Below the pieces are notes generated by a model, which saw only the letters and a list, made by a program, of their open reading frames with translations, did no database searches and was not told where the DNA came from. From NCBI GenBank assembly GCA_964620045.1, contig CAZUJL010000001.1, positions 522,592-586,591 on the forward strand: a stretch of DNA of 64,000 nt. Reading direction: 5' to 3'. Made by a program: the position numbers and the translations under genes. This document shows, piece by piece, positions 26,397-50,330 of this stretch. Numbering within the stretch: the first letter of the stretch is position 1; every line of letters starts with the position of its first letter. This DNA is from an uncultured Nitrospirales bacterium. Its GTDB lineage: Bacteria > Hydrogenedentota > Hydrogenedentia > Hydrogenedentales > GCA-2746185.

Positions 26397-26842
26397 TTGT
26401 CGCCGGGCGGAAATTCACGCATCAAGCCCGCCACACTGTATGCGAGCATTCCGCCCGCCAGTGCGGGGATCATCTCTGCGATATAGATCGCAAATTCAAA
26501 CGGCCACAAATTGTGGGAACCTGGATTAACCATCATGTCCACAATCGCGATGACAAAGAATGACGCCATCGTGGCGCAACATTTGAGCGGCCAGTAACGC
26601 GGCGATTTCCACCCAATCAACATGCCAATGCCAAACAGCACGATCAGCGTCCAATACGTCTGCTTGTCGATCGCAAACTCAACGGCACCGAAGAAATCGA
26701 ACGGGGCCACTTCGCGGCTTTGCATATAGGGCGGCACCAGCAGGGCCAGGAAACCCAGGAACGCGGCAAACATGAACCAGAACACGGTGGTTCGCCGACT
26801 CTCGACTACCGGAGCGTCATTTTCTTCTAGATCGTCAGACAT
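26393..26842 (-). CDS. Hypothetical integral membrane protein (149 aa)
   Basis: Four predicted TM helices; no recognised family. Confidence 0.45.
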   Translation of the reverse strand: MSDDLEENDAPVVESRRTTVFWFMFAAFLGFLALLVPPYMQSREVAPFDFFGAVEFAIDKQTYWTLIVLFGIGMLIGWKSPRYWPLKCCATMASFFVIAIVDMMVNPGSHNLWPFEFAIYIAEMIPALAGGMLAYSVAGLMREFPPGDN

Positions 26843-29662: not shown

Positions 29663-29754
29663 ATGTTCGTCATCGCGAGGAGCGGGGTTTGCGACGAAGC
29701 AACCTCTTCATCCAGCACCCACTCTTAAAAACCTCGCCAGCCTCCATTTAATGC

Positions 29755-31695: not shown

Positions 31696-34146
31696 CTAGA
31701 ACAGTCCATACGGATCGAGATCGGATTTTAATACAACGCTTTTCGGAATCGTCTCATCAAACTGCACACGCAACTGCCGGGCAAGTGCATTCAGTGTTTT
31801 CGCGGATCGGCAAAACGCGCCGAGGTTCCAGCGGTATTTGGTCTTGACGCGGTAAATCGTGGCCGGCGCGGGGCCGAGCAGTTCGACGGCCCGGAGATCC
31901 TGGGTTTCGAGCGCCTCGCGCGCCCACCCGACCAGGCGCATGGCGGCGCGCTCGGCGGCGGATTCGTCTTCGGATTCAATGGTGAATTGGACCATGCGGC
32001 GGAAGGGCGGATAGCCGGAGCGCTGGCGGTCGGCGATCTCGCGGCGGTAGAACGCGGCGTAGTCGTGGTGCTGCGCGGCCAGAATCGCGTAGTGGTTCGG
32101 CCGGCAGGTCTGGATCAGCACCTCGCCGGGGCGCTCGCCGCGGCCCGCGCGGCCGGCCACCTGCGTGAGCAACTGGAAAATATTCTCGGCCGCTCGGAAG
32201 TCGGGCATGGCGAGGCCGTTGTCGGCGTTCAGCACGCCCACGAGCGTAACGCCGGGATAGTCGTGCCCCTTCGCGATCATCTGCGTGCCCACGAGCACAT
32301 CGACCTCGTGCTTCGCGAAGCGTTGCAGAATTTTCGCGTGACCGTGCTTCGTCGCCGTCGTGTCGCGATCCATCCGCTCGATGCGCGCGTTCGGGAAACT
32401 GCGCAGCAGGTAGTCCTCCACCTTCTGCGTGCCCTGGCCGAGATAGGTCAGCGGCGCGAAGCCGCAGTCATCGCACGCCATCGGCACGCGCCGGCGCAAG
32501 TTGCAGTAGTGGCACGCGAGAAACTGTCCGCGCGCGTGATACGTCATCGTCACGTGGCAATCGGTGCACGCCGTGCACGATCCGCAGGCCGGGCACAGCA
32601 AGAACGGCGAATGTCCGCGCCGGTTGAGCAGCAGAATCACCTGTTCGCGCTCGGCGATCCGCGCGCCGACCGCATCCTCCAGCATGCGCGAGAGCACGAC
32701 CTCGCCCGCCTGCTCGCGCACTTCGGCGCGCATATCCACGAGCTTCACCTGCGGCAACGCGGCGCGGGTGGCGCGGCGTTTCAGCTCGAGCCGCACAGAC
32801 TTGCCGGTCTCGCTGTTGTGGTAGGACTCGATGCTCGGCGTGGCGGAGCCGAGCACGCACACGGCGTTGTTCATCTGCGCGCGCACGATGGCAGCGTCGC
32901 GCGCATGGTAGCGCGGCACTTCGCCCTGTTTGTATGAGCCGTCGTGCTCTTCGTCCACGATGATGATGCCGAGGTTTTGCAGCGGCGCGAAGATGGCCGA
33001 GCGCGCGCCGACCACAATGCGCACCTCGCCACGCTGCGCGCGCCGCCATTCGTCGTAGCGCTCGCCCGCGCTGAGGCCGCTGTGCAGCACGGCGATGTCG
33101 GTCTGGAACCGCGCGAGGAAGCGGCCTACGGTCTGCGGCGTCAGCGAGATTTCCGGCACGAGCACGATCGCGCTTTTCCCAAGCGCCAGCGCGCGTTCGA
33201 TCACCTGCAAATACACTTCAGTCTTGCCGGAACCCGTGATGCCGTGCATCAGGAATGTTTTGAACTCAGCGGTATCCAGCGACCGCGCGACGGCATCGAA
33301 GGCCGCCTGTTGTTCCTCGTTCAGCGGCAGTTTCTCGCGCGAGGCCGCGTCCGCATGCAACAACGGCGTCCGGTACATCTCGCGATCTTCGCGGCGGATA
33401 AGGCCTTTTTCTTCCAGCCCTTTCAGCGCTGCCGTGGTCGCGTCGTGTCGTGTGCACAGCGGCGCGGCCGCTTGCTCCGGATCGTTGCGAAGGAGGTCAA
33501 AATAAATCGCCGCCTGTTTAGGCGCACGGCGTTGCAGGGCCACTTGCTCTTCGATCGGCAGCACCGCCTCTTCAATGAGTACCGCCCACGCTTCGGTGCG
33601 CTCGGAGACCGTCGCCCGCGTCGCAACGGACGCCCGGGTGAGCGCGCCACGCCGTTCCAGCGCGGCCAGCGCGGATGCCAATTCCTCCTCGCCCAGCATG
33701 CGCTTGAGTTCGGCGTCGTCCAGCGGCCCGCGCGCGTGCAGCGCGGCAATCACTTCGCGCTGGCGCTCGGTGTAGCGACCATCCGGCAATGCAGACGCGA
33801 GACGATATTCTTTTTTCGTACGCTGGTTGATGCCGGGCGGCACGGCGCTCGGCAGCACTTCGCCCAGCGAGCAGCAGTAGTACTCCGCGATCCACGTGCA
33901 GAGCTTGATGATCTCCGGCGACAGCGCGGGCGTTTCGTCCGGCAGCTCGGCGATGTCGCGGACCTTCTCGATCTCGCTCTCGTCAGACAGCCCGACGATA
34001 TATCCTGTCTCGAGCCGGCGCTGCACCGGCACAAGCGCGCGCATGCCGATCGCGGCACGATCGGCATACGTCGGCGGAATGGAATAGGTAAAAGGGTGGT
34101 CGAGCGGTAGCGGCAGGGCCACCTGCGCGAAGCGGCGCCCCGGCAT
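31696..34146 (-). CDS. priA: Primosomal protein N' (replication-restart helicase)
   Basis: Walker A GITGSGKT; DEEHD box; Cys4 zinc-ribbon insert CPACGSCTACTDCHV ... CHYC ... CDDCG; 816 aa. Confidence 0.9.
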   Translation of the reverse strand: MPGRRFAQVALPLPLDHPFTYSIPPTYADRAAIGMRALVPVQRRLETGYIVGLSDESEIEKVRDIAELPDETPALSPEIIKLCTWIAEYYCCSLGEVLPSAVPPGINQRTKKEYRLASALPDGRYTERQREVIAALHARGPLDDAELKRMLGEEELASALAALERRGALTRASVATRATVSERTEAWAVLIEEAVLPIEEQVALQRRAPKQAAIYFDLLRNDPEQAAAPLCTRHDATTAALKGLEEKGLIRREDREMYRTPLLHADAASREKLPLNEEQQAAFDAVARSLDTAEFKTFLMHGITGSGKTEVYLQVIERALALGKSAIVLVPEISLTPQTVGRFLARFQTDIAVLHSGLSAGERYDEWRRAQRGEVRIVVGARSAIFAPLQNLGIIIVDEEHDGSYKQGEVPRYHARDAAIVRAQMNNAVCVLGSATPSIESYHNSETGKSVRLELKRRATRAALPQVKLVDMRAEVREQAGEVVLSRMLEDAVGARIAEREQVILLLNRRGHSPFLLCPACGSCTACTDCHVTMTYHARGQFLACHYCNLRRRVPMACDDCGFAPLTYLGQGTQKVEDYLLRSFPNARIERMDRDTTATKHGHAKILQRFAKHEVDVLVGTQMIAKGHDYPGVTLVGVLNADNGLAMPDFRAAENIFQLLTQVAGRAGRGERPGEVLIQTCRPNHYAILAAQHHDYAAFYRREIADRQRSGYPPFRRMVQFTIESEDESAAERAAMRLVGWAREALETQDLRAVELLGPAPATIYRVKTKYRWNLGAFCRSAKTLNALARQLRVQFDETIPKSVVLKSDLDPYGLF

Positions 34147-34149
34147 CGG

Positions 34150-34746
34150 CTACTCCCGCAGTTCGGCGTCCCAGTAAGCCGTGTCGAGGAAGCGCTGCCA
34201 GCTCGAGATGCGCCCGGCGGGCAGGCGCGTGCCGAGCGTCGGCAGCCACGCCGGCTTGTGCGGCCGGCGGATCAGCGGCATTTCGGCCTCGGGCGGCGTG
34301 CGATCGCCCTTGCGCACGTTGCACTGCACGCACGCAAGCACGAGGTTGTCCCACGTGTCGCGTCCGCCGCGCGACCGCGGCATGACGTGGTCAATGGTCA
34401 ATTCCGACTTCGCGAGTTTCTTCCCGCAGTACTGGCAGGTGCTCTTGTCGCGCTCGAAAATGCTGCGGCGCGAGAAGCGCACTTCCTTGTGGAAGAAGCC
34501 ATTGAATGCGTTGAGGATGATGATCTCCGGCACGCGCACTTTCATCGTCGGCGTGTGAATGAACCGGCCCTCTTCGCGCGCGAGCGACAACTCGCACCAG
34601 TCGGAGAAATCGTGTTGGCGGTAATCTGCCGGATCAACGGCGCGGGCGAGGTCCTGATAGAGCAGCGCAAGGGCGCGGCGGACGGACGCAACGTTCACGG
34701 CCACCCACGAGCGGTTCAGGACAAGTACCTGGCCCTCGATGTGCAT
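34150..34746 (-). CDS. HNH endonuclease
   Basis: CQYCGKKLAKSELTIDHVMPRSRGGRDTWDNLVLACVQCNVRKG. Trimmed to the MHIEGQ start. Confidence 0.75.
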   Translation of the reverse strand: MHIEGQVLVLNRSWVAVNVASVRRALALLYQDLARAVDPADYRQHDFSDWCELSLAREEGRFIHTPTMKVRVPEIIILNAFNGFFHKEVRFSRRSIFERDKSTCQYCGKKLAKSELTIDHVMPRSRGGRDTWDNLVLACVQCNVRKGDRTPPEAEMPLIRRPHKPAWLPTLGTRLPAGRISSWQRFLDTAYWDAELRE

Positions 34747-34881
34747 GCACGACCTCTCGGTGTGCCGCGCGCGCCGTGCGCCCGGCCCGTGCCACCCACG
34801 CCCATGCATACTACAAATCGCCTGTTAAACCTGCATGAGCAAGGGATAATGAGTATAGAAATCTCGCAAACCCCAGTTCAA

Positions 34882-35015
34882 CCTACCTTTTCTTTGGAGA
34901 AAGAAAAGGTAGGACCAAAAGAAACCATAAAGGGGTTTGGGAATGTGGGAGGGCGAGCGTCGTCGCGAGCTACAGTCGCCGGTAAATCCAAGCTCGCGAG
35001 GACGCTCGCCCTCCC
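34882..35015. repeat. Cluster of nested perfect inverted repeats (structured RNA or REP-like element) in a lower-GC intergenic region
   Basis: A 13-bp-stem hairpin cctaccttttctt-tggag-aagaaaaggtagg (34882–34913) is nested inside caaacccc ... ggggtttg. A second 15-bp-stem inverted repeat, gggagggcgagcgtc ... gacgctcgccctccc (34947–35015), carries an internal tcgcgagc/gctcgcga pair. Confidence 0.5.
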
Positions 35016-35077
35016 GCTGCGCCTGAGCTTGCTCCGGTAGATAGAATGGTGATCTCGACAACGGAAAGGGCGCGGCG

Positions 35078-35667: not shown

Positions 35668-37455
35668 CTACTTCCCATTCGCCCGATTCGCCTGCAGTAC
35701 GCAGCGGAATCCCACCGTGGTGAGTTGGGCTTCGCGGAAGAGGCCTTTGCGGGCGCAGCAGCGGAGTTCGGGGGGCTGGGAGTGCCAAGAGCCGCCGCGG
35801 ACTACGCGGCGCGGTTCGCTGGGGACGTCGGTGTCGCCTCCCGTGCCGGGGTCGTAGGGCACGAAGGCGCCCGTGGTCCATTCGAACACGTTGCCGGCGA
35901 GATCGAAGACGCCGTCGGGCGTGGCGCCGGAGTCGTGCATGGTGACAATCGACGGCATGCCGAGGTAGTCGCCGTAGTTGCAGACGGCCGTGTCGGGTTC
36001 GAGCGTGCCCCAGGGATATTTGCGGCTGTCCTTGCCGCGCGCGGCGAATTCCCACTGGCGCTCGTTGGGAATTGCCTTGCCGCACCACTGCGCGTAGGCC
36101 TGGGCGTCGTCGAAGGTAACACCGACGACGGGCTGGCGCGGACCGTTCAGCTCAGGGTCGCGCCAATATTTCGGCTCGGCGTGGCCGGTGGCCTTTATGA
36201 ACGCGCCGTATTGGTCGTTCGTCACCGGGTACTTGTCGATGTAGAACGGCTCAATGCGCGTTTCGAATTCAGGCGCTTCCTCGCGGAAGTCGTTGCAGCC
36301 CATGAAAAAGCTGCCGCCGGGCAACAGGACCATGTTCTCCGTGGACACCTGCTTGCCGGACTGCGTCTGCACAGAGACGCCTTCGCGGGCCTTGTATGAC
36401 TTTTTGTAGGCGGTGCCGAGCGCGTCGCGGAACTCGCGCGCGGATTGCCAGCGGCGCTCGCGCTCCTTAAGCAACGCGCGGTCGAGCACCTCGACGACGG
36501 AGGGCGAGACATCCTGTCGCACTTCGAGCACGGTGACCGGGTCGTCAATCGGCGTGCGCAGCGTGAGCAACTCGTGCAGGATCAGGCCCATGCTGTAAAT
36601 ATCGGAGCGGAAATCGATCGGCAGGTGGCGGTGCTGCTCGGGCGAGGCGTACACCGCCGTACCCACGATGCGTTTGGGCTTCGGCTGCCCCGGCTGCAGG
36701 ACTTCCTGCTCGTCTTCCACGGCGACCGCGAGACCGAAGTCGAGCACCTTCGCGCGGTCGCCCGGCAGCAACATGATGTTTTCCGGCTTCAAGTCGCGGT
36801 GAACCACCATGCGGTGGGCGTAGTCGAGCGCGGAGAGCGACTGCAGCGTAAGGTCGATGGCGAGGTGCGCGTCCATCAGGCGGCGCTCGGCCCGGTGTTT
36901 CTTGAGGTACGCGCGCAGCGAGGCGCCCTTGAGCAGCTCCATCGTCAGGTACAGGATACCGTCGGGCGTGGTGCTCACGTCGTGGACGGACACGATATTC
37001 TCGTGGCGCAGGCGGCGCGCGATCTGGGCCTCTTTAATGAAAAGCTGCTGGCCACGCTGGGTGGCGAGCGCGCGGGGGTGCATGAACTTCAGCGCGACTT
37101 CTTCGTCGATCAGCGCGTCGTGCGCTTTATATACAACACCCATGCCGCCTTTGCCGATCTTGGCGTCGATAATGTACCGGTCGGCGATGCGGGTGCCGCT
37201 CTCGAAATTGAGGGCCTGTTCGGCGGGGCGCTGCTCGGTGGTGGGCACGCGGACGGCCGCGCCACAGCCGAAACACAGGCCGGGCCGCCCCTGGACCGTG
37301 TCCGGGACGATGATGCGAAGTCCGCAGCTCCCGCACGTGACATGGATCATCGGTGGTTTTCCCGCCCCAAGGAATCTGTCGGGAATCGTAGCACTGGTGC
37401 GCCGATCCGGCAAAATAGGACAGCGTTTCACCATTGACAAAGGCCTGATCGCCAC
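35668..37455 (-). CDS. Ser/Thr protein kinase fused to a C-terminal formylglycine-generating-enzyme (FGE-sulfatase) domain, with an N-terminal zinc ribbon
   Basis: CGSCG ... CFGCG ribbon. Kinase subdomains I–XI (GKGGMGVVYKA, HRDLKPEN, DFG). C-terminal RVVRGGSWHS ... FGE-type domain. Confidence 0.8.
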   Translation of the reverse strand: MAIRPLSMVKRCPILPDRRTSATIPDRFLGAGKPPMIHVTCGSCGLRIIVPDTVQGRPGLCFGCGAAVRVPTTEQRPAEQALNFESGTRIADRYIIDAKIGKGGMGVVYKAHDALIDEEVALKFMHPRALATQRGQQLFIKEAQIARRLRHENIVSVHDVSTTPDGILYLTMELLKGASLRAYLKKHRAERRLMDAHLAIDLTLQSLSALDYAHRMVVHRDLKPENIMLLPGDRAKVLDFGLAVAVEDEQEVLQPGQPKPKRIVGTAVYASPEQHRHLPIDFRSDIYSMGLILHELLTLRTPIDDPVTVLEVRQDVSPSVVEVLDRALLKERERRWQSAREFRDALGTAYKKSYKAREGVSVQTQSGKQVSTENMVLLPGGSFFMGCNDFREEAPEFETRIEPFYIDKYPVTNDQYGAFIKATGHAEPKYWRDPELNGPRQPVVGVTFDDAQAYAQWCGKAIPNERQWEFAARGKDSRKYPWGTLEPDTAVCNYGDYLGMPSIVTMHDSGATPDGVFDLAGNVFEWTTGAFVPYDPGTGGDTDVPSEPRRVVRGGSWHSQPPELRCCARKGLFREAQLTTVGFRCVLQANRANGK

Positions 37456-37495
37456 TTAGGCTTCCGCCACGGGGAATACCGCTCGGGGGACTCTC

Positions 37496-38620
37496 ATGGA
37501 GTCGATTACGCTGAATCCGCCTTCGCAGGCGTCGCAGGAAAACCGTCGCGCGGCGCGCGTGCGCAAGGTGCGGCCGGTGGCATTTGTGGCGCGAAGCGCG
37601 GACGCCGAACCGGCGATGCGCACAGTGACGGCGAACATAAGCCGCGGCGGAATGCTGCTGGTGACACGGCAGGATTCATTTCCGCCGGCGGGCTCAAGTG
37701 TATTGCTGATGCCGTTTGATGTTTCCGCGCAAAACTCGCCCGATGCCGGCGCGGCAATCCAGGGTCGGATCGTGTACACACGTTTTTCGCCGCGCGCGCA
37801 GTTACGCTTCGCGGGACTGAAGTTTGAGCAGGATCTTCCCGCGCGCGCCGCGCAGATTCTGGGGCTCGACGGGCGACCGGATTCCGTGTCCGACGCCGTG
37901 ACGACGCTGGAAGAATTGGAAATGCTTGCGACCGCGCCACGCGCTATCGCGCGGGCATCGTTTGACGATACCGCCCATGCCGCTCCCGAGCCGCGCATGG
38001 CCGAGATGCCGATCAGCGAACCGTATGGCGGCGGACCCGTCGGCCGCGTGCGCGAAGCGCTGGCCATCGCGCGCGTGGAATTTATTCGCGCGACGAGCGC
38101 GTTTATGGAAGCGTGGGGTGAATCTCAAATCCGCGATACTTTGGGCGCGCGCCATGCCTTGGCGCGCGCGAAAGGCGCGGACGGTCTGCGCGAAATGAAA
38201 CGCGAATGGATTGGGTTGCGCGGGAATTTCGCGGCGCTGGCCGAAGCGGAATTTGAAAAGAGCGGCGCGTGGCCCCGGGCCGGGTTCATGGATGCCGCCG
38301 AAAACCCCTATTACAACACCGAACAAGACCAGCCGCGCGCGGCCGTCATGCAGACACTGCGCATGCTGGCGGGCCAGGTGGGCCGGGTGCTCGTGCGGCA
38401 TGGCTTTGTCGATGTCGGCGCAGGTTCAGACTGGGCGCTGACCAACGAACGCAGCGGGTTAACGTTTACGGGCGCGATGGCGTTTTCTGACGCCATGCGC
38501 GATACGTTGATGCGCGCGGGCCAGTTGCAGGCGGAATTGTTGCGCTCGCTTGAACAGGCCACTCTGATGCGGGAAAACGAAGCGCGCGCCGAAGCCTTGC
38601 GGATATGGGATCGCGCATAA
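37496..38620 (+). CDS. PilZ-domain protein with a ~270-aa uncharacterised C-terminal extension
   Basis: The c-di-GMP-binding motifs RRAARVRKV (RxxxR) and NISRGGMLL (D/NxSxxG) lie in the first ~90 aa. Confidence 0.6.
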   Translation: MESITLNPPSQASQENRRAARVRKVRPVAFVARSADAEPAMRTVTANISRGGMLLVTRQDSFPPAGSSVLLMPFDVSAQNSPDAGAAIQGRIVYTRFSPRAQLRFAGLKFEQDLPARAAQILGLDGRPDSVSDAVTTLEELEMLATAPRAIARASFDDTAHAAPEPRMAEMPISEPYGGGPVGRVREALAIARVEFIRATSAFMEAWGESQIRDTLGARHALARAKGADGLREMKREWIGLRGNFAALAEAEFEKSGAWPRAGFMDAAENPYYNTEQDQPRAAVMQTLRMLAGQVGRVLVRHGFVDVGAGSDWALTNERSGLTFTGAMAFSDAMRDTLMRAGQLQAELLRSLEQATLMRENEARAEALRIWDRA

Positions 38621-38789
38621 CGCAATCCTAACGCGTAGGCGATTTCCAGCACAGGTTTTTCTTTACAGGATTTCGGCTGAGGCATATACTCGACTGTACG
38701 GATTCGGCACGCGGCGGGTTGTAGCGTGCGGTGGGCTGTCGGGGGTCTGCGCAGCAAACCATGGGCTTCGCGGTTAACACAGAGGGGAT

Positions 38790-40463
38790 GTGTCTATGTT
38801 CACGAAACGGGTAGGGATAGGTATGTGCGCGGGCGCCTTGGCGCTGGCGCTCGCGGTATCGGTTGGTCCGCTGCGCGCGGTATGGGCAGATCTGGGACTC
38901 TCCGGCGTCATCGATGTGGAGATTACCGATCCGGAAGATGTCGAACTGAATGTGTTCACGCCGGACGCCGACGTGCCGGACTCGCTGGAAGTGGGTATCT
39001 CTTCAACCGTCAGCCCGGAAGTGCGCGGTGGGTTGAGTGTGGATGACATCGACTCGGTCGTGACGGCGCTGGGCGGCCAACTGGACAACGCCGGCGTGAT
39101 CACGGACGAACTGGACGACACCGAAGCCACGCTCGTAAACGAATTCGGCGACATCTCCGAATACGTCGCGGTGCTGGATTTGGCGGAGCTGGATTACGAA
39201 AACATCAGCCGGGGCAATATTTCCGGCCTGATTGCCGAAGACGTGATCCGCACCGTGGCCATCGTGGACGGGTACTACGAATCGCGCGACGTGCGCGACA
39301 TCGTTGAAGCCGACGCGATCGACGTGGCCGTGCAAATTCGTGATTCGGCCGATATCGACGAAGACGGCAACGGCCTTCCGGATGCGACCGCGCTGCTGGA
39401 GAACGACGACTTCATCCTGATCGGCCGAAACGGAACGATCACGATTGTAAAGAACATCGGATCGACCGGACGCGGCGTGACCGAAGCGGTCGTGGATCAT
39501 TATTACGAAAGCCAGTTCGGTCCGACGCTCGTGACCGTGGAATCGCCGACGCTCGAAGCGTTGCAGTTGGCGGACAATTCCTTCGATGCGTTCGATACGG
39601 CGCGCCTGATCATCACGATTTCGGAAGACTCGAGCGACTTGGTCGATGAGCCTTCGAGCTTCAGCCCGGTTGCGGATTTCGATCTCGTGGACAGCAACGA
39701 CGATCCGCTTCCCGCGCCAGAGAACCTCTTCGTGCGCGTCGTGATCGCGGTGACGGATGCCGCGCGCGGTTCGATTCCCGACTGGACCTTCGTCGGCGAC
39801 TTGCCGGGCGGGTTGGAACTGATCGGCGAACTGAGCGGCCCTGGCATCGCCGAGAGCCTGGAAGACGGCACGGATGTGGATGCGTATTCCTACAGCCTCA
39901 CGATGGTGCAGGACAATGAGGAAATCACCGCCGAATCCGATAGTGACTCGGAGTGGGCGGAAGCCGATGATGTCAACGTGACCAACGAAGATACAGCGGA
40001 CGACGAAAACGATTCGCGCGACGTGGTCGAAGCCGATGACGGCGACGACACCGTGCGCGCGACCTTCCTGCTCGGCTCGGCGATCTTCGGCTCAAACGTG
40101 ACGCCGCGCGTGGGTGGCGGTGGCGGCGGTGGTGGTGGCAGCGGCTGCTTCATTGCGACCGCGGCCTACGGCACGCCGATGGCCTCCGAAATCCAGTCGC
40201 TGCGCGACGTGCGCGACGCGTACATGATGGATACGGCACTGGGTTCGGCGTTCGTCGATGCCTACTACCGCATCAGCCCGCCGATCGCGCGGATGGTGTC
40301 CGAATCCCCGGTGGCGAAGACCGCCGTGCGTGCGGCGTTGACGCCGGTGGTGACGGTCAGCGAATGGACGATGGAGTCGCCGGCGCTCGTGGCGATGGGC
40401 ATGATCGGTTCGATGTTGCTTGCGGCGGCCGCGGTGGCGCGCCTGCGACGCCGTGCGGTGTAA
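38790..40463 (+). CDS. Highly acidic secreted protein with a poly-Gly linker and a conserved Cys-containing C-terminal anchoring module (CFIATAAYG ... TM ... RLRRR)
   Basis: Signal peptide (AVWA|DL). Strongly acidic (Asp/Glu-rich) along its whole mature length. GGGGGGGGSGCFIATAAYGTPMASEIQSLRDVRD ... YYRISPPIA. Terminal TM helix followed by RLRRRAV. Confidence 0.6.
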   Translation: MSMFTKRVGIGMCAGALALALAVSVGPLRAVWADLGLSGVIDVEITDPEDVELNVFTPDADVPDSLEVGISSTVSPEVRGGLSVDDIDSVVTALGGQLDNAGVITDELDDTEATLVNEFGDISEYVAVLDLAELDYENISRGNISGLIAEDVIRTVAIVDGYYESRDVRDIVEADAIDVAVQIRDSADIDEDGNGLPDATALLENDDFILIGRNGTITIVKNIGSTGRGVTEAVVDHYYESQFGPTLVTVESPTLEALQLADNSFDAFDTARLIITISEDSSDLVDEPSSFSPVADFDLVDSNDDPLPAPENLFVRVVIAVTDAARGSIPDWTFVGDLPGGLELIGELSGPGIAESLEDGTDVDAYSYSLTMVQDNEEITAESDSDSEWAEADDVNVTNEDTADDENDSRDVVEADDGDDTVRATFLLGSAIFGSNVTPRVGGGGGGGGGSGCFIATAAYGTPMASEIQSLRDVRDAYMMDTALGSAFVDAYYRISPPIARMVSESPVAKTAVRAALTPVVTVSEWTMESPALVAMGMIGSMLLAAAAVARLRRRAV

Positions 40464-40504
40464 CGTCGAACCGCGATTGATACAATAAAAATCACTAACG
40501 CGGT

Positions 40505-40545
40505 GGCGTGGACTATAAAGTCCGCGCCGCCGCTTTTCTTTTGTC
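40505..40545 (+). terminator. Rho-independent terminator after the acidic-protein gene
   Basis: ggcgtggac-tataaa-gtccgcgcc then cgcttttcttttg. Confidence 0.5.
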
Positions 40546-40595
40546 TGGTATTGCAGACAATCTGCTAATTTTGCGGCGAATTGACAAGATATTTG

Positions 40596-40625
40596 TTGAC
40601 AACGATTTCCGCAAATCCTGATACT
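40596..40625 (+). promoter_or_regulatory. Sigma70-like promoter for the fliQ operon
   Basis: TTGACA, a 17-nt spacer, then TGATACT. A GGAG RBS lies 7 nt before the fliQ ATG. Confidence 0.35.
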
Positions 40626-40672
40626 GTTGGCGCGACCGGGGATTGGGGCTGACTCCCGGCGGAGATGCCGCC

Positions 40673-40942
40673 ATGACGATTGATGACGTCCTGTTTTTGG
40701 GACGCGACGCGATGATTGTGACGCTGCTCGTGTCCGCGCCCATGCTTCTGTCGGGGCTCGTGGTCGGCCTGATCATCAGCGTGTTCCAGTCGGTCACACA
40801 GATTCAGGAAATCACGCTGACCTTCGTGCCGAAAATCATCGTGGTGTTCGCCGCGTTCGTCATTTTCCTGCCGTGGATGAGCGAGACTCTGCTCGGATTC
40901 GTGGTGCCGTTGCTGGGGAACGCACACGAGTGGGCGCGCTAA
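40673..40942 (+). CDS. fliQ: Flagellar export apparatus protein FliQ
   Basis: MTIDDVLFLGRDAMIVTLLVSAPMLLSGLVVGLIISVFQSVTQIQEITLTFVPKI, a classic FliQ/SctS. The TTG-extended ORF was trimmed. Confidence 0.85.
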   Translation: MTIDDVLFLGRDAMIVTLLVSAPMLLSGLVVGLIISVFQSVTQIQEITLTFVPKIIVVFAAFVIFLPWMSETLLGFVVPLLGNAHEWAR

Positions 40943-40945
40943 CGA

Positions 40946-41716
40946 ATGGTGGCGGAGATTGAAATCCTCAAGCTGTTCATCCTCGTGATGGTGCGCTTTT
41001 CCGGTCTAATCGTGACGGCGCCCATCCTGAGTTCGAACAACTTTCCCGTGATGGGCAAGCTCGGCCTGATCGGCGGCCTCGCGATGGCGGTGACGCCCAC
41101 CCTACCGGCGCTCTCCACTCCCCTGCCGGCAGAGGCGATCCCATTCGCGATCGTGGCGCTGGGCGAACTTTTGGTGGGCATGGCGTTGGGGCTCGTGATG
41201 CAGATCGTGTTCGCGGCGATTCAAATCGCGGGCCAGGTAATGGACATGCAGTCGGGGTTTGGTCTGATCAACGTGTTTAATCCGGCCTTGGAAACACAGG
41301 TGCCGCTGTTTGGTTTTCTGTTCTTCATCATTGCCGTGCTGTACTTGCTCACGAGCTTTGGGCACCACATGATGATCCTGTCGCTGGTCTCGACCTTCGG
41401 CCGCGTACCCGTGGGCGGATTCGCGCCCGACACCTCGATGATGGGGCAGATGGCGGCGTGGGCCGGGCTGATGTTTAACGACGCGGTGCTGCTGGCCGCG
41501 CCAGTAGCGGGCGCGATGATGCTCGCCTACGTGACCATGGGCATCATGGGCCGCGCAGTGCCGCAGTTGAACCTTTTCGTAATCGGATTTCCGCTGACCA
41601 TCGCGGGCTCGCTCATCGTGGCCGCGTTGTCCATCGGGTACTACCTCGACCTGCTGGACAACATGTTCGGCGGGATGTTCCGCACCATTAACCAGATGAT
41701 CAACGGGCTGGGCTAA
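40946..41716 (+). CDS. fliR: Flagellar export apparatus protein FliR
   Basis: 256 aa with 6–7 TM helices, immediately after fliQ. Confidence 0.8.
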   Translation: MVAEIEILKLFILVMVRFSGLIVTAPILSSNNFPVMGKLGLIGGLAMAVTPTLPALSTPLPAEAIPFAIVALGELLVGMALGLVMQIVFAAIQIAGQVMDMQSGFGLINVFNPALETQVPLFGFLFFIIAVLYLLTSFGHHMMILSLVSTFGRVPVGGFAPDTSMMGQMAAWAGLMFNDAVLLAAPVAGAMMLAYVTMGIMGRAVPQLNLFVIGFPLTIAGSLIVAALSIGYYLDLLDNMFGGMFRTINQMINGLG

Positions 41717-41719
41717 GCA

Positions 41720-42814
41720 ATGGCCGACCAACCCGCGGGCGAAAAAACGTTACCGGCGTCGCAGCGCAAGCTGCAGATGGCGCGCGAGCGCGGGAACGTG
41801 GCCCGCAGCGGTGATCTGACGACCGGGGCACTGCTGCTCACCGCAGGCATCGCGCTGACGATCGTCGGCCCGATGGCCTTCAAGCAACTCCTCGGAATCA
41901 CGGCGCACTACTTCGGCGAGATCGATTCGCGCATCTATACCGTGGATGACATGCGCGTGTTGTCGATTCAGGCATTGCTGATGATGGCGCCGGCGGCATT
42001 GCCCCTGATGCTGATCCTCATGGGCATGGGCATTCTGATGAACGTGACGCAGTTCGGGATCGTATTTTCGAGCCAGGCCTTGCAACCGAAATTCGAGCGG
42101 CTCGATCCGATCAAGGGTTTCCAGCGCCTGTTCAGCCTGCGCTCGCTCGTGGAGCTGCTCAAATCCATCGTCAAGTTCGCCGCGATCGCCGCCGTCGTGT
42201 GGTTCGGTGTGCGCAACCGCCTGCCGGAACTGCTTGCGCTGATGGGCACGAACGCGTGGGGAGCCTCGGTGGGCACATGGAGCCTCGTGTGGGCCGTGTG
42301 GTGGCGCGTCGGCCTCACGATGCTCGCGATCGGAATTTTGGACTTCGCATTCCAGCGTTGGCAGTATTTGCAGGATCAGCGGATGACGCGCCAGGAAGCC
42401 GTCGAAGAGATGCGCCAATTGGAAGGCGATCCGCGGATTCGGCAGCGCGTCCGGCAGATTCAACGGCAGATGGCCATGCGCCGCATGATGGTGGATGTGC
42501 CGACGGCGGACGTGGTGATCACGAACCCAACGACATACGCCGTGGCGCTACGATACGAGGCGGATCGCATGCAGGCCCCCCGCGTGGTGGCGAAGGGCAT
42601 GCGGCTCGTGGCCGAGCGCATCCGCGAGACGGCGGTGAAGAACAATGTGCCGATCGTGGAGCGGCCGGAAGTGGCGCGGGCGTTGTATAAGGACGCGGAA
42701 ATCGGCGGCTTCGTGCCGGAGGGTTTGTTCCGCGCCGTGGCCGAAGTGTTGGCATATGTGTATCAAATCGATCGCCGGGCCGAGAAGTTGGCCGAGCGGC
42801 GTAAGACAGCCTAA
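41720..42814 (+). CDS. flhB: Flagellar export apparatus protein FlhB (autocleavage site reads NPTT)
   Basis: N-terminus ...LPASQRKLQMARERGNVARSGDL. Four TM helices. C-terminal domain has VVITNPTTYAVALRY where the canonical site is NPTH. Confidence 0.85.
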   Translation: MADQPAGEKTLPASQRKLQMARERGNVARSGDLTTGALLLTAGIALTIVGPMAFKQLLGITAHYFGEIDSRIYTVDDMRVLSIQALLMMAPAALPLMLILMGMGILMNVTQFGIVFSSQALQPKFERLDPIKGFQRLFSLRSLVELLKSIVKFAAIAAVVWFGVRNRLPELLALMGTNAWGASVGTWSLVWAVWWRVGLTMLAIGILDFAFQRWQYLQDQRMTRQEAVEEMRQLEGDPRIRQRVRQIQRQMAMRRMMVDVPTADVVITNPTTYAVALRYEADRMQAPRVVAKGMRLVAERIRETAVKNNVPIVERPEVARALYKDAEIGGFVPEGLFRAVAEVLAYVYQIDRRAEKLAERRKTA

Positions 42815-42830
42815 GAGGACGTAAACGAAG

Positions 42831-44909
42831 ATGGCGATTCCGGCCGAACGGATGCCGACGCAGCCGCGATTCCTGATGCGCAATCAGGACGTGGCGCTCG
42901 CGGTGTCTGTGGTCGCGATCCTCATGGTGCTCGTCATCCCCATCCCCACATGGATGCTGGACGTGTTGCTGTCGCTGAACATTTCCGCGTCGATCGTGGT
43001 GTTGCTGTCGACGATCTATCTGAAGAGCGCGGTGGAGTTTGCCGTGTTCCCCTCGTTGCTGCTGATGCTGACGCTGTTCCGGCTCAGCTTGAACGTGGCG
43101 GCGACACGCCTGATCCTCGCGCAGGCGGACGCCGGCTCCGTGATCAACGCCTTCGGCGGATTCGTGACCGCGGGCAGTCCCGTGGTCGGATTCATCATCT
43201 TCGCGATCCTGATCATCATCCAGTTCGTCGTGATCACGCGCGGTGCGGGACGCATCTCTGAAGTCGCCGCGCGGTTCACCTTGGACGCGATGCCCGGCAA
43301 GCAGATGGGTGTGGACGCCGACCTGAACGCGGGCCTCATCACCGAAGCACAGGCGCGCGAGCGGCGCTCGAAGATTGAGCGCGAGGCCGACTTCTACGGG
43401 GCCATGGACGGCGCCACGAAGTTCGTGCGCGGCGACGCGATCGCGGCCATCATCATCACGCTGGTCAACATCATCGGCGGCTTCATCATCGGCGTCGCCA
43501 TGCGCGGCATGAGCTTCCCGGATGCGCTGTCCACCTATACGCGCCTGACCGTGGGCGACGGCCTCGTGTCGCAGATCCCCGCGCTGATCATTTCCACGGC
43601 CGCCGCCATGATCGTGACGCGCGCCAGCTCAAACGAAAACCTCGGCGCCGACCTCACCGAGCAGCTCACGCGCTATCCGCGCGCCCTGATGAGCGCGGCC
43701 GCCATGCTGGCGCTAATCGGCATCGTGCCCGGCATGCCGCATCTCCCCTTCCTGATTGTCGCCGCCGCGCTCGGCGCGCTCGGCTGGCAGTCGCAGCGGA
43801 TGTCCGTGGAGCGCGTGCAGGTGGAAGCCGCCACAGCGCTGGAAGAGGCGAAAAAAGTCGAAGCGGCGCCGCCGAAAACCGAAGACTACCTTGTCGTCGA
43901 TACGCTGAAGATCGAATTGGGCTATGGCCTGATCGCGCTGGCGGACAAGAAACAAGGCGGCGATCTGCTCACGCGCATCCAGATTCTGCGGCAGCAGATC
44001 GCGAGCAAGCACGGGTTCATCGTGCCCGTGATCCGGATCGTGGACAACATGCGTCTGCGGCCGAACGAATACCGCGTGTTGCTGCGCGAGACCGAGATCG
44101 CGCGATACGAGATGCTGCCCGAGCACTACCTCGCCATGAACCCCGGCCTGGTGCGCGAAGAAATCGAGGGCGTGCCGACGACGGAGCCGGCCTTCGGCCT
44201 GCAGGCGATGTGGGTGCCGCGCCGGGATCGTGATCGCGCGGAGCGTCTCGGCTACACGATCGTGGAGCCGAGCGCCGTGCTCGCGACGCATCTCACCGAG
44301 TTGATCCTGTCGCACGCCGAAGAACTCGTGACGCGCGAAGACACGCAGGCGTTGCTGGACAATCTGAAATCGACGGCGAAAACCGTGGTGGCCGAATTGA
44401 TCCCGGCGCTCTTGTCGCTCGGCGAGCTGCAGAAGGTGATTCACAACCTGCTGCGCGAGCGCGTCTCCGTGCGAAACCTGCAGATCATCCTCGAGACACT
44501 GGCGGACTATGCCCCGCGCACCAAAGACACCGACATCCTCACCGAATACGTGCGCCATGCGCTGGCGCGGCAGATTTGCGCGGACTATAAGGACGAAGAG
44601 GGCGTGCTGCGCGTGGTCACCCTCTCCCCCACCCTGGAACAGGAGCTGAGCGAGGCCATTCAGAAAGCCGAGCCGGGCCGCTTCATTCCCGTGGACCCGG
44701 CCCGCGCGGACGCGATCGCGCAGGCCGCGGCGCGCGCCGTGCAGCCGATGGTGCGGGCGGGGTATGAAGGCATTGTGCTGACCTCGGCACAGGTGCGGCG
44801 GTATTTCCGGCGGATGGCGGAGAGCCGCACGCCGAAGATTGTGGTGATGTCGTATAACGAGGTCGACCCGGCCGTAAAACTCAATAGCGAGGGTACCGTC
44901 GCGCTATAA
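42831..44909 (+). CDS. flhA: Flagellar export apparatus protein FlhA
   Basis: 692 aa. N-terminal TM domain with the FHIPxG-region equivalents. Large cytoplasmic domain. Confidence 0.9.
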   Translation: MAIPAERMPTQPRFLMRNQDVALAVSVVAILMVLVIPIPTWMLDVLLSLNISASIVVLLSTIYLKSAVEFAVFPSLLLMLTLFRLSLNVAATRLILAQADAGSVINAFGGFVTAGSPVVGFIIFAILIIIQFVVITRGAGRISEVAARFTLDAMPGKQMGVDADLNAGLITEAQARERRSKIEREADFYGAMDGATKFVRGDAIAAIIITLVNIIGGFIIGVAMRGMSFPDALSTYTRLTVGDGLVSQIPALIISTAAAMIVTRASSNENLGADLTEQLTRYPRALMSAAAMLALIGIVPGMPHLPFLIVAAALGALGWQSQRMSVERVQVEAATALEEAKKVEAAPPKTEDYLVVDTLKIELGYGLIALADKKQGGDLLTRIQILRQQIASKHGFIVPVIRIVDNMRLRPNEYRVLLRETEIARYEMLPEHYLAMNPGLVREEIEGVPTTEPAFGLQAMWVPRRDRDRAERLGYTIVEPSAVLATHLTELILSHAEELVTREDTQALLDNLKSTAKTVVAELIPALLSLGELQKVIHNLLRERVSVRNLQIILETLADYAPRTKDTDILTEYVRHALARQICADYKDEEGVLRVVTLSPTLEQELSEAIQKAEPGRFIPVDPARADAIAQAAARAVQPMVRAGYEGIVLTSAQVRRYFRRMAESRTPKIVVMSYNEVDPAVKLNSEGTVAL

Positions 44910-44974
44910 CGCGGGCGAGGTACACCGGAACCCGAATAGGCTATTATAGGAGCCACGGGGGGAACCTCCAGGCC

Positions 44975-46369
44975 ATGCGCCAGCGCTTCCACAAATTTCG
45001 CGCGGGTACGCTCGACGAGGCGTATCTCGCCATGCGCGACAAGCTGGGCGACGAGGCCATCGTGGTGCGGACGGCGACGGTGCCGCACGGCGGGTGGCTC
45101 GGGCGGCTGATTGGACAAAAAGCAGTCGAGGTGACAGCTTCCGTGACGATTGATGACGACGGTCCCGTGCGCGCACGGCCGCTGAGCCCCGTGGAAAAGA
45201 AATACCGTAGCGGCGCATCGACTCCGGCCATGGCCTCCGCCAGTGAGTCCGTCGGCACCGACGCGACCGTGCGCGATACTGTGGACTTCTTCCGGAAAGT
45301 GGTGACCCAGGCCCAGCAAAAAGCGGGCATCGCCGGAGAAGATAAATCACGCGCCGCCACCGCGCCCACCGGCGCGCCGACGCCTCCGATCATGAACACC
45401 GGCAACGCCGTGCCGGCGGAGGTCATCCCCTTCGAAGCGCCGAAGCGCGCCGAGCCCGAGCCGCTTTCGCAAGAGGACATTCGCAAAGACCTGGCCGAAA
45501 TGCGCGAGATGCTCGGCATTTTGACGGCGGAGACGCCGGGCGCGGGACTCTCCCCGGAATTCGTGCCGCACTACCAGATGCTCATCAAGCAAGGCGTGTC
45601 GCGCAAGCGCGCGGCGGCGCTGGTGCAGGCGGCGGCGGGGCGCGGCGATCTGCGCGCGTTCCGCGATCCGCGCATCTTCCGCGAACGGTTGAAGATGGAA
45701 ATTCGCCGGCATGTGCAGGTGACGGGCGGCATCGCGCTCGAATCCGGAAAGCGCAAAGTGGTCGCGCTCGTGGGCGCGACGGGCGTCGGCAAAACGACAA
45801 ACCTCGCCAAGCTGGCGGCGCTGTATTCCGTGCAGGAACATGCGCGCGTGGGCGTGATCACGACAGACACCTACCGCGTCGCGGCGACGGACCAGTTGCA
45901 GGTCTACGCGAACATCATCAGCCTGGACATGAAAGTCGTGCATCAGGCGACGGAAATGCGCGCGGCCCTGCGGGCGTTTGCGGATCGCGATTTGGTGCTG
46001 GTGGATACGGCCGGCGGCAGCCCCTTCAACCGCGCGCAAATGACCGATGCGCGGGCGTTGGTGGAGGCAGCCGAGCCGGACGAAGTACATTTGCTGGTGA
46101 GCGCGAATGTGTCGCTAGAGGATCTGCGCGAGGTGGTCACGCATTTCTCGCTGCTGAAACCGAGCGCGCTGTTTTTCACGAAGTTGGATGAAACGCGCCG
46201 ATACGGGCAGTTGTTCAGCCTGGCGGCAGAGGCCGGCCTTCCGCTGAGTTATTTCAGCGTGGGCCAAAATGTACCCGACGACATCATGCCGGTAAGCGGC
46301 GGCACGGTGGCCAAACTCGTCGTGGACGGTGGGGACGACCTTGGCGGAACAAGCGCAAAATCTTCGTGA
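44975..46369 (+). CDS. flhF: Flagellar biosynthesis SRP-type GTPase FlhF
   Basis: G1 VALVGATGVGKTT; DTAG; NG-domain architecture. Confidence 0.85.
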   Translation: MRQRFHKFRAGTLDEAYLAMRDKLGDEAIVVRTATVPHGGWLGRLIGQKAVEVTASVTIDDDGPVRARPLSPVEKKYRSGASTPAMASASESVGTDATVRDTVDFFRKVVTQAQQKAGIAGEDKSRAATAPTGAPTPPIMNTGNAVPAEVIPFEAPKRAEPEPLSQEDIRKDLAEMREMLGILTAETPGAGLSPEFVPHYQMLIKQGVSRKRAAALVQAAAGRGDLRAFRDPRIFRERLKMEIRRHVQVTGGIALESGKRKVVALVGATGVGKTTNLAKLAALYSVQEHARVGVITTDTYRVAATDQLQVYANIISLDMKVVHQATEMRAALRAFADRDLVLVDTAGGSPFNRAQMTDARALVEAAEPDEVHLLVSANVSLEDLREVVTHFSLLKPSALFFTKLDETRRYGQLFSLAAEAGLPLSYFSVGQNVPDDIMPVSGGTVAKLVVDGGDDLGGTSAKSS

Positions 46370-47207
46370 ATTCGTCCGGAAGAACCAGGGCCTGGCGCGC
46401 GTCATCGCGGTGACGAGCGGCAAAGGCGGCGTTGGCAAGACGAACACGAGCGTCAATCTCTCGATCGCGCTGGCGCAAAAGGGCCAGCGGGTCGTGATCA
46501 TGGACGCCGACCTCGGGCTCGCGAACGTCGAAGTGTTGCTCGGGCTGAACTCGCTGTACAACCTGCAGCATGTCATCAGCGGCGAAAAAACCATGGCGCA
46601 GATCCTCGTGGAAGGCCCCGGCGGCATCGCCGTCGTGCCGGGCACGTCGGGTCTCGCGCGATTGGCCGACTTGTCCGAACAGGGCCGGCAGAATGTGATG
46701 GCGGGCCTGCGGCAGATGCAGGAGCGCGCGGATTTTGTCGTGGTGGACACGATGGCCGGTATCGGCAAGAGCGCGACGGCGTTTGTGCTCGCGGCGGATG
46801 AAGTGTTGCTGGTGTCCGCGCCGGAGCCGAGCTCGATCGTGGACGCGTACGCCATGCTGAAGACGATTTATCAGAAGCGCGACGACGCGATCGTGCGCCT
46901 GATCGCGAACATGGTCATGAACAAGAACCAGGCCTCGCTGGTGTATTCGAAACTCAGTGGCGCGGCGCAGCAGTACCTCGGACGCAAGCTGAGCTACCTC
47001 GGCATGGTGCCGCGCGACCCGCACGTAGGCCAGGCCGTCATGCAAAGCCATCCCTTTATGCTGCGTTATCCGTCCAGCCCGGCTGCGAAGAGCATCGAGG
47101 ACATCGCCGAGCGCCTGATCAGCCAGCGCGCGGTGACGCCCGGCACGGAAGGTTTCCTGCGGCGCTTCGCGCAGACGCTGGGCCTCGGCGGCGCGCGCAC
47201 GGCGTAA
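46329..47207 (+). CDS. flhG: MinD/ParA-family flagellar number regulator FlhG (FleN/YlxH)
   Basis: Deviant Walker A VTSGKGGVGKTNTSVNLS; follows flhF. Confidence 0.8.
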   Translation: MGTTLAEQAQNLREFVRKNQGLARVIAVTSGKGGVGKTNTSVNLSIALAQKGQRVVIMDADLGLANVEVLLGLNSLYNLQHVISGEKTMAQILVEGPGGIAVVPGTSGLARLADLSEQGRQNVMAGLRQMQERADFVVVDTMAGIGKSATAFVLAADEVLLVSAPEPSSIVDAYAMLKTIYQKRDDAIVRLIANMVMNKNQASLVYSKLSGAAQQYLGRKLSYLGMVPRDPHVGQAVMQSHPFMLRYPSSPAAKSIEDIAERLISQRAVTPGTEGFLRRFAQTLGLGGARTA

Positions 47208-50286: not shown

Positions 50287-50297
50287 TCTCCAATTTC

Positions 50298-50330
50298 GTA
50301 TAAGCGTAAAATACAATATAACGCTTATAC
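50298..50330. promoter_or_regulatory. AT-rich perfect palindrome (putative operator) immediately upstream of the FG-GAP lipoprotein gene
   Basis: gtataagcgt-aaaatacaatata-acgcttatac, i.e. 10-bp arms. About 12–45 nt upstream of the likely start. Confidence 0.35.

Follow-up and report, generated by a model that had tools for sequence, protein, structure and literature searches.

A PilZ-like gene paired with an acidic CFI-box-CTERM protein upstream of a flagellar export operon

Between a divergent kinase gene and a flagellar export operon, an uncultured bacterium carries a gene for a PilZ-like protein, followed by one for a very acidic, putatively secreted protein whose C-terminus runs through a glycine tether, a CFIATAAYG module, a transmembrane (TM) helix and an Arg-rich tail. 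The locus raises the question of whether such a tail passively anchors its cargo or marks it for processing, and whether the PilZ-like protein and the flagellar genes are functionally tied to that cargo. We pursued this question in a 64-kb window, i.e., the whole stretch of DNA analysed, in whose positions all coordinates are given; residues of the acidic protein are numbered on its 557-amino-acid (aa) version, which starts at GTG 38790. A previous sequence-only reading had likened the tail to sortase- or exosortase-type signals and suspected a calcium-binding surface factor co-regulated with motility. Our analysis identifies the tail as a catalogued module, CFI-box-CTERM, and the reading that we favour, with moderate confidence, is that of a Sec-exported acidic envelope protein tethered by its C-terminus to the cytoplasmic membrane. 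The acidic gene contains the following features, assigned as given in brackets.

38790..40463, + strand: acidic CFI-box-CTERM protein, 557 aa (GTG 38790) or 555 aa (ATG 38796) (open reading frame, ORF)
38790..38888, + strand: predicted Sec-type signal peptide, aa 1-33 (hydrophobic core aa 8-27)
38889..40106, + strand: acidic beta-rich passenger, aa 34-439 (composition, AlphaFold2 (AF2), hidden Markov model (HMM))
39351..39386, + strand: DIDEDGNGLPDA, DxDxNG-type candidate Ca2+-binding loop, aa 188-199 (alignment A1, AF2)
40110..40145, + strand: Gly-rich tether VGGGGGGGGGSG, aa 441-452 (sequence)
40146..40352, + strand: CFI-box-CTERM domain, aa 453-521 (NCBIfam NF041770)
40377..40463, + strand: C-terminal TM helix (aa ~530-552) and Arg-rich tail RLRRRAV (hydropathy)

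The acidic protein and its C-terminal module

The C-terminal part of the acidic protein reads VGGGGGGGGGSG-CFIATAAYGTPMASEIQSLRDVRDAYMMDTALGSAFVDAYYRISPPIA, then a hydrophobic helix, then RLRRRAV, so that the G9 linker, CFIATAAYG module, TM helix and Arg-rich tail described earlier are all present. The motif had been held to be none of the standard ones, yet a profile check of this part returned a curated NCBIfam model, NF041770 (CFI-box-CTERM), which matches over its full length (1-69 of 69; 90.7 bits, curated cutoff 40 bits, E = 3.8e-26). At a scan threshold of E <= 1, NF041770 is the sole NCBIfam match of the acidic protein and no sorting-signal HMM is found; Pfam has no model for the module. 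The name “CFI-box-CTERM domain-containing protein” is already carried at NCBI by homologues such as P0054 and P0106. Conserved blocks follow one another in the order CFIATAAYGTP, LRxxRD, FVDxYYRxSPPIA and VRxxLxPVV, and in the window protein CFIATAAYG occupies aa 453-461, LRDVRD aa 471-476 and YYRISPPIA aa 492-500. Score, C-terminal position and the C-F-I-A-T-A-A start all place the protein in NF041770, and the layout expected of a passenger of this family is also present, with a signal-like N-terminus before the module and a TM helix and basic tail after it.

The module is widespread. When the last 118 aa served as phmmer query against 1.84 billion representative proteins, 18,633 matched at E <= 1e-3, of which 7,040 passed E <= 1e-10; with few exceptions the CFI-box lies at the very C-terminal end of the matched protein, whose length ranges from 130 to 2,140 aa. 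The passengers are mutually unrelated and include InlB B-repeats, subtilisins, PKD, BACON, beta-helix, FG-GAP, RCC1 and hydrolases. Among 248 CFI-box proteins, the distance from the CFI Cys to the end has a median of 106 aa and lies within 90-125 aa in 239; in the window protein the Cys is 105 residues from the end, itself counted (aa 453 of 557). The residue directly before this Cys (-1) is Gly in 120 of the 248 and Pro in another 63, Gly and Ser predominate at -2 to -5, and the stretch from -1 to -12 is Gly/Ser-rich. A C-terminal TM helix is found in 229 of 242 proteins, with a median of 4 Lys plus Arg among the last 12 residues. Two strict peptide patterns, run against 185,579 species with a single genome for each, yielded 479 confirmed CFI-box loci, and results on locus neighbourhoods cover the best 80 of these; three additional loci outside the best 80 (L091, L092, L093) were reached via the PilZ-like partner. 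Among the best 80, 24 are labelled Hydrogenedentota and 38 Dehalococcoidia/Chloroflexota, the rest bearing mixed labels of metagenome-assembled genomes (MAGs). Searching for the same tail elsewhere thus found several copies per genome, as some MAGs supply two or three CFI-box loci, and copies in tandem.

The window protein resembles other NF041770 members in the near-C-terminal position of the module, the Gly-rich linker before it and the TM helix and basic tail after it, whereas it differs in its passenger, which forms a small separate family of unusual acidity, and in the PilZ-like gene that is always paired with it. Variants of the architecture occur within the family. About 25 % of CFI-box proteins (P0029, P0031, P0032, P0033; the large proteins of L014-L060) carry an extra hydrophobic stretch, approximately LLLGLLxAxxGLAAGG, which adjoins the poly-Gly linker and P/G-C junction on the N-terminal side. 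P0121 and P0122 each hold two CFI-boxes, one of them internal, with a signal-peptide-like segment starting after the first TM helix and basic tail, which suggests a fusion of two neighbouring CFI-box genes or a gene call that merged them. P0125, with 21 “repeats” of the motif region, was rejected as a spurious poly-Gly match.

In alignment A2, C453, A456, T457, A458, G461, R475, G485, Y492, Y493, P497, A500 and L517 are invariant, and F454, I455, A459, P463, L471, R472, D476, V489, S496, R514 and P519 are conserved in at least 90 %. AF2, run on a 46-sequence alignment, models the CFI-box as all-helical with a mean predicted local distance difference test (pLDDT) of 84.5, placing FIATAAY in a short helix that precedes three conserved helices and then the TM helix. 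Hydropathy is at least 1.7 across aa 530-552, and the tether VGGGGGGGGGSG, with its Gly9 run, has a pLDDT <50. A Foldseek search of the PDB with the CFI-box model found no match with E < 5.

At the 5' end of the gene, ATG 38796 (555 aa) is more probably the start than GTG 38790. A Shine-Dalgarno sequence, GAGGGG, lies at 38782-38787 with the ATG 8 nt after it, and the 555-aa gene call occurs with identical DNA in independent public assemblies or sequencing runs of the same organism. This 555-aa protein (38796-40460) itself sits in a public collection, clustered under a 51-aa fragment as representative, which is why the homology search missed it and its best match was 85 % identical. The N-terminus has the build of a signal peptide, with K6 and R7 in the n-region, a hydrophobic core and then RAVWA followed by D; signal peptidase I is predicted to cut after VWA, and the junction, [AV]WA before [DE]L, is kept in the closest relatives in A1, the end-to-end alignment of the 24-member full-length acidic family. 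A lipoprotein lipobox was considered and rejected: Cys13, part of IGMC, lacks conservation across the family (A1), so the N-terminus is not a lipobox. No signal-peptide helix precedes the CFI Cys of the acidic protein.

The passenger bears out the earlier description of a protein strongly acidic along its mature length. Asp makes up 11.8 % and Glu 7.0 % of the acidic protein; the mature part has 23.2 % Asp plus Glu (D+E) against 3.6 % Lys plus Arg (K+R), and each 40-aa block of residues 41-440 holds 6-13 acidic against 0-3 basic residues. In the AF2 model, the protein as a whole reaches a mean pLDDT of 77 and the passenger 80-95 over ~400 aa, with ~25 strands. The 24 full-length homologues are 28-85 % identical and have invariant residues spread over the passenger (A1), and the GC content at third codon positions (GC3), 0.78, is similar to that of neighbouring genes. 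The acidic ORF encodes a real, folded, very acidic protein. With the full model, Foldseek found only generic beta-sandwich, arrestin or Vps26 similarity in the PDB (TM-score <= 0.24, root mean square deviation >20 Å), and a PDB sequence-profile search with the full-length family gave no match. Across the family D+E ranges over 11-24 % and K+R over 1-5.5 %, with the window protein and its closest relatives as the extremes, and the mature passenger is usually devoid of Cys, leaving the CFI Cys as the sole one. The passenger HMM matches just L008-L013 among the best 80 loci, plus L091-L093; the family is therefore confined to one clade, whose best-labelled members are Candidatus Hydrogenedentales and Hydrogenedentota.

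Within the passenger, a DxDxNG-type motif that recurs in most family members is represented by DIDEDGNGLPDA. D190 of this loop is invariant, D185, D192, P197 and A199 are each at least 90 % conserved (A1), and a helix is predicted at 199-204 directly after it (AF2). Like DxDxDG-type loops of the EF-hand-like, dockerin and thrombospondin-type-3-like kinds, it combines near-invariant Asp positions with a following helix; unlike them, it is present in one copy rather than a repeat array, and its distal acidic ligand is non-canonically spaced. The Pfam dockerin, TSP3 and EF-hand models do not match the acidic protein. Binding of divalent cations by the acidic surface and this loop is plausible. 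Of the calcium-binding surface factor proposed earlier, the calcium part thus retains modest support from a conserved candidate loop, whereas surface exposure is an assumption, because a C-terminal TM anchor in a probable diderm places the protein on the inner membrane.

In the reading that we favour, the protein would be exported by the Sec pathway and then cleaved by signal peptidase I after VWA33, and the C-terminal helix and the Arg-rich tail, the latter left in the cytoplasm, would stop transfer and fix the orientation. We infer from this topology that the acidic beta-domain would be held on the outer face of the cytoplasmic membrane by the flexible Gly9 tether, with the helical CFI-box domain at the membrane surface. 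The CFI-box would accordingly be seen as a portable C-terminal anchoring or recognition module serving many extracytoplasmic passengers in Hydrogenedentota and Dehalococcoidia.

Several points weigh against this reading. The role as an anchor is deduced from architecture, because our literature search found no experiment on the CFI-box and no paper on the motif or on NF041770. The invariant polar residues (C453, T457, R475, Y492 and Y493, with R472, D476 and S496 at >= 90 %) exceed what a passive stalk needs, and this surplus hints at recognition, catalysis or processing. The segment aa 508-529 is fairly hydrophobic and flanked by conserved K/R510 and R514, so that the C-terminus might be drawn as a helical hairpin, and the extra hydrophobic stretch in about a quarter of members misfits a simple type-I topology. 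The host is probably a diderm, because the window encodes an outer-membrane-type PF13557 protein, and in a diderm an inner-membrane tether would confine the protein to the periplasm in the absence of an additional step. Finally, the PilZ assignment of the partner gene barely clears its threshold (PF07238, 26.4 bits vs gathering cutoff 22.5, over aa 16-121).

Anchor or processed sorting signal

The best surviving alternative, which we regard as possible though rather unlikely, is that CFI-box-CTERM is a true sorting signal and that a dedicated enzyme recognises the helical CFI-box domain and cleaves at the invariant Gly/Pro-Cys junction after Sec export, by analogy with PEP-CTERM/exosortase, PGF-CTERM/archaeosortase and MYXO-CTERM. 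The passenger would then be set free or become bound covalently to an envelope polymer or a lipid; alternatively, the Cys would be modified. CFIATAAYG(T/S)P is extremely conserved across phyla, its invariant Cys is usually the sole Cys of the mature protein, and a flexible Gly-rich stretch stands directly before it. As with LPXTG/sortase, PEP-CTERM/exosortase, GlyGly-CTERM/rhombosortase, PGF-CTERM/archaeosortase and MYXO-CTERM, a C-terminal motif is combined with a hydrophobic helix and an Arg/Lys cluster, the end typical of known sorting signals, and is shared by numerous passengers that are unrelated to one another, each genome having several substrates. Copies of the CFI-box also occur in tandem. 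MYXO-CTERM also has an invariant Cys near Gly residues, as in the CFI-box. Surface display in a probable diderm would moreover require an extra step of the kind that such an enzyme could provide.

The spacing argues in the other direction. In the described tripartite signals the motif is adjacent to the helix (0 to ~10 aa), whereas the CFI motif lies 77 aa upstream of it, with a conserved ~60-aa four-helix domain in between. The earlier comparison with sortase and exosortase tails therefore holds as regards a reused C-terminal module but not as regards the classic tripartite layout, because 77 aa and a folded helical domain separate motif and TM helix. No known sorting-signal HMM in NCBIfam matches the acidic protein, and the search for a cognate sorting enzyme came up empty: by Pfam, the 64-kb window has no sortase, exosortase, rhomboid or CPBP-type gene, its remaining genes being housekeeping ones; no non-CFI neighbour family recurs at the 38 Chloroflexota loci; and no enzyme recurs around the best 80 loci outside the Hydrogenedentota flagellar locus. 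The sole recurrent enzyme neighbour, Lgt, is housekeeping-like and limited to one orthologous Hydrogenedentota locus.

Two specific forms of processing were also weighed. Lipidation of the CFI Cys by Lgt was considered after lgt was seen directly upstream of large CFI-box proteins at ~10 loci, and was set aside as the leading explanation. The gene passes the housekeeping equivalog TIGR00544 (129.9 bits vs cutoff 118.9); all cases belong to that one orthologous locus, including a Bathyarchaeia-labelled contig with identical synteny; lgt is absent from the window; and a quarter of members have Pro at -1 and there is no correctly oriented signal-type helix before the Cys. Intein- or Hedgehog-like autoprocessing at a Gly/Cys-Phe junction is not supported either, as the module is ~70 aa, all-helical, not of the Hint fold and without a conserved His.

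The PilZ-like partner and the flagellar locus

The genes and signals around the acidic gene are as follows.

35668..37455, - strand: fusion of Ser/Thr protein kinase and FGE-sulfatase (formylglycine-generating-enzyme-like) (Pfam)
37496..38620, + strand: PilZ-like protein, 374 aa (ORF)
37541-37858, + strand: N-terminal PilZ domain, aa 16-121 (Pfam PF07238)
37544..37558, + strand: RRAAR (aa 17-21), RxxxR c-di-GMP-binding motif (sequence, alignment A3)
37634..37651, + strand: NISRGG (aa 47-52), (D/N)xSxxG c-di-GMP-binding motif (sequence, A3)
38662..38690, + strand: sigma-70-like site TTTACA-17-TATACT (10/12 consensus positions; pattern match only)
40500..40543, + strand: intrinsic terminator after the acidic gene (hairpin 40500-40533 plus TTTTCTTTT tail)
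40596..40625, + strand: sigma-70-like site TTGACA-18-GATACT before fliQ (10/12 consensus positions; pattern match only)
40673..47207, + strand: flagellar export and placement operon fliQ-fliR-flhB-flhA-flhF-flhG (Pfam, relatives)
40673-40942, + strand: fliQ (PF01313, Bac_export_3, 97 bits)
40946-41716, + strand: fliR (order as in relatives)
41720-42814, + strand: flhB (order as in relatives)
42831-44909, + strand: flhA (order as in relatives)
44975-46369, + strand: flhF (SRP54 match)
46329-47207, + strand: flhG (ParA/MinD-type match)

The protein encoded upstream of the acidic gene is a PilZ protein, as had been read from the sequence: it scores above the PF07238 cutoff, and both motifs for cyclic di-GMP (c-di-GMP) are invariant in its orthologues. 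In A3, an alignment of 7 PilZ-like sequences with identity down to 45 %, R17, R18 and R21 of the first motif and N47, S49, R50 and G52 of the second are unchanged, giving family-wide forms RRAxR and NxSRxG. Because both binding motifs are intact, the protein probably binds c-di-GMP. Its C-terminal ~250 aa are conserved with many invariant positions (A3) and have no match in a Pfam scan or a PDB sequence-profile search; no TM segment is present. Homologues (n=25) measure 346-394 aa, apart from two truncated ones of 272 and 316 aa. With receptors of the YcgR and MotI/DgrA types the protein shares intact RxxxR and (D/N)xSxxG motifs and a gene beside flagellar genes. However, its PilZ domain is N-terminal (from aa 16) and no YcgR-N (PilZN) Pfam match is found, so that it lacks the N-terminal domain required of a YcgR-type flagellar brake; the conserved C-terminal region sets it apart from these receptors, and its conserved partner is the acidic CFI-box gene, not a motor gene.

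The kinase-FGE gene is divergent from the PilZ gene and occupies the same position in every related locus. Its product matches Pfam Pkinase with 145.9 bits and FGE-sulfatase with 157.3 bits, and the probable true start is the M at 37350, giving 560 aa, a version that agrees with gene calls in relatives. This neighbour is kept even at loci where other genes replace the PilZ and acidic genes.

A common order runs through the window and L001, L004, L005, L006, L008, L010, L091, L092 and L093: kinase-FGE (-), PilZ-like (+), acidic CFI-box (+), then pilT (-) or CFI-box paralogues where present, and fliQ-fliR-flhB-flhA-flhF-flhG. It is kept in every related contig of sufficient length, down to 39 % identity of the acidic and 41 % of the PilZ-like protein, and the same gene order in relatives carries Bac_export_1, Bac_export_2 and FHIPEP calls. 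Every PilZ-like homologue examined is followed by a member of the acidic CFI-box family. Because this pairing is strict, it suggests that the PilZ-like gene is functionally linked to the acidic cargo, which its product may control.

The position between the kinase-FGE gene and fliQ varies in content. Three tandem CFI-box genes stand between the PilZ-like gene and fliQ at L001 10001-15410 (also in L002 and L003), encoding proteins of 552 aa, 556 aa and 471-526 aa, the last with a faint beta-helix match; from the tandem copies in L001, L008 and L013 it follows that the slot expands and contracts. At L004 11769-12896 (-), a gene for a PilT/PilU-type type-IV-pilus retraction ATPase (TIGR01420, 453 bits) lies between the CFI-box gene and fliQ; this opposite-strand pilT insertion is also found in L010, L012, L018, L025, L070 and L091 and is absent from the window. 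Elsewhere among Hydrogenedentota, a CFI-box protein of 1,100-2,200 aa fills the slot without a PilZ-like gene, and the passenger HMM detects in it no homology to the acidic passenger. The large protein is often preceded by a ~370-aa membrane protein (signal peptide, Fn3-like region, TM) and by lgt, as in L014, L018, L025, L033, L040, L052 and L066 (also L019, L062 and L070), where the CFI-box protein measures 1,100-1,500 aa. No fliP or fliO precedes fliQ or occurs among the window ORFs scanned with Pfam, and the same holds in all related loci; fliP must therefore lie elsewhere. Hydrogenedentota-type synteny is also shared by contigs labelled Bathyarchaeia (L033), Rhodothermaeota (L008/L017) and Nitrospirales (L009, L010, L066). 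Since these contigs share the kinase-FGE, lgt or PilZ-like, CFI-box and flagellar gene order, their labels are probably binning or classification errors, and the archaeal label of L033 is no evidence for archaeal CFI-box proteins.

The idea that the PilZ-like and acidic CFI-box proteins form a c-di-GMP-controlled adhesion or motility module coupled functionally to the flagellum, e.g., as an envelope factor acting close to the export apparatus or as a swimming/attachment switch, appears unlikely to us. It draws on the strictly conserved gene pair, the like sizes of the two families (~25 each) and the intact c-di-GMP motifs, as well as on the conserved position directly upstream of fliQRflhBA-flhFG, often with pilT inserted, and on the different CFI-box protein that Hydrogenedentota without the acidic passenger still hold in the same slot. 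Transcription signals speak against it. The gap of 169 nt between the PilZ and acidic genes holds the promoter-like site at 38662-38690, and the acidic gene is followed, as stated earlier, by its own terminator and then the fliQ operon: its 15-bp stem, in which 11 pairs are GC, closes a 4-nt loop and is followed by the U tract TTTTCTTTT, with a free energy of -42.5 kcal/mol (z = -6.4 vs shuffles). A second promoter-like site precedes fliQ; both sites are pattern matches from a sigma-70-like consensus scan. The PilZ-like/acidic gene pair appears to be a transcription unit separate from the flagellar operon, and of the proposed co-regulation with motility the conserved synteny alone is left. By-eye inspection of the two intergenic regions, with no formal test, found no convincing sigma-28 or sigma-54 promoter, and an Rfam scan of 37000-41000 found no element, hence no c-di-GMP riboswitch there. 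Moreover, the slot is variable, holding one to three CFI-box genes or lgt with a CFI protein of 1,300-2,200 aa and no PilZ gene; the PilZ-like protein has no TM helix, and a type-I model leaves the acidic protein ~7 cytoplasmic residues for contact; and synteny inside one clade may be inherited rather than selected.

A still bolder combination, in which the CFI-box is the handle of a novel sorting or anchoring pathway of Hydrogenedentota and Dehalococcoidia that processes or modifies the Gly/Pro-Cys junction, and the PilZ-controlled acidic cargo of this clade a swim-or-stick switch, is likewise improbable. That the acidic ORF is a low-complexity or non-functional frame and its tail a chance resemblance, as the biased composition (D+E 23 %) and the Gly9 run might suggest, is refuted by conservation and fold evidence, i.e., the 24 full-length homologues, the confidently modelled passenger and the 18,633 relatives of a module that is not unique to this protein, alongside the locally typical GC3, the curated HMM match and the identical gene in independent sequencing runs.

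Other genes of the window and meaning of the locus

Elsewhere in the window, a PSCyt1/PSCyt2/PSD1 (DUF1549/DUF1553) protein is encoded beside a DUF1501 protein at 28253-31641 (-), a pair typical of Planctomycetota-like genomes. DUF1501, PSCyt and priA recur in that order in L006, and priA with an HNH-endonuclease gene (window 31696-34809) recurs in L006 and L093. Downstream of flhG and a small methyltransferase-like ORF, 47770-50316 (-) encodes a probable envelope protein of 848 aa with ten FG-GAP-like repeats (PF13517, 163 bits) and a GC3 of 0.66, below that of its neighbours. ORFs at 4445-5014 (+), 10604-11983 (+), 23748-24389 (+), 24748-25428 (-), 26393-26842 (-) and 34258-35040 (+) have no Pfam match at the thresholds applied; all show coding-like GC3 except the last, which overlaps the HNH gene. 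PADLOC gave no defence-system match.

As the CFI-box module is already catalogued, annotation pipelines would label the acidic protein a “CFI-box-CTERM domain-containing protein”, and a specialist will find little here to surprise. Apparently unrecorded so far are the acidic passenger family with its narrow range, its constant association with a PilZ-like gene and the Hydrogenedentota “CFI-box slot” that separates the kinase-FGE gene from the fliQ operon. The module is very common: more than 18,000 protein clusters have it, most of which come from uncultured Hydrogenedentota and Dehalococcoidia, and it is found on glycan-binding domains as well as on proteases and adhesin-like repeats. It is without a published function, structure or partner. 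For so abundant and unexplained a module the locus is a convenient entry point and a compact test case, offering one well-folded acidic cargo in which the CFI Cys is the only Cys and a conserved neighbour of the c-di-GMP-sensor type. Whether the CFI-box is a passive anchor or a processed signal would, once answered, show how these abundant phyla display their envelope proteins.

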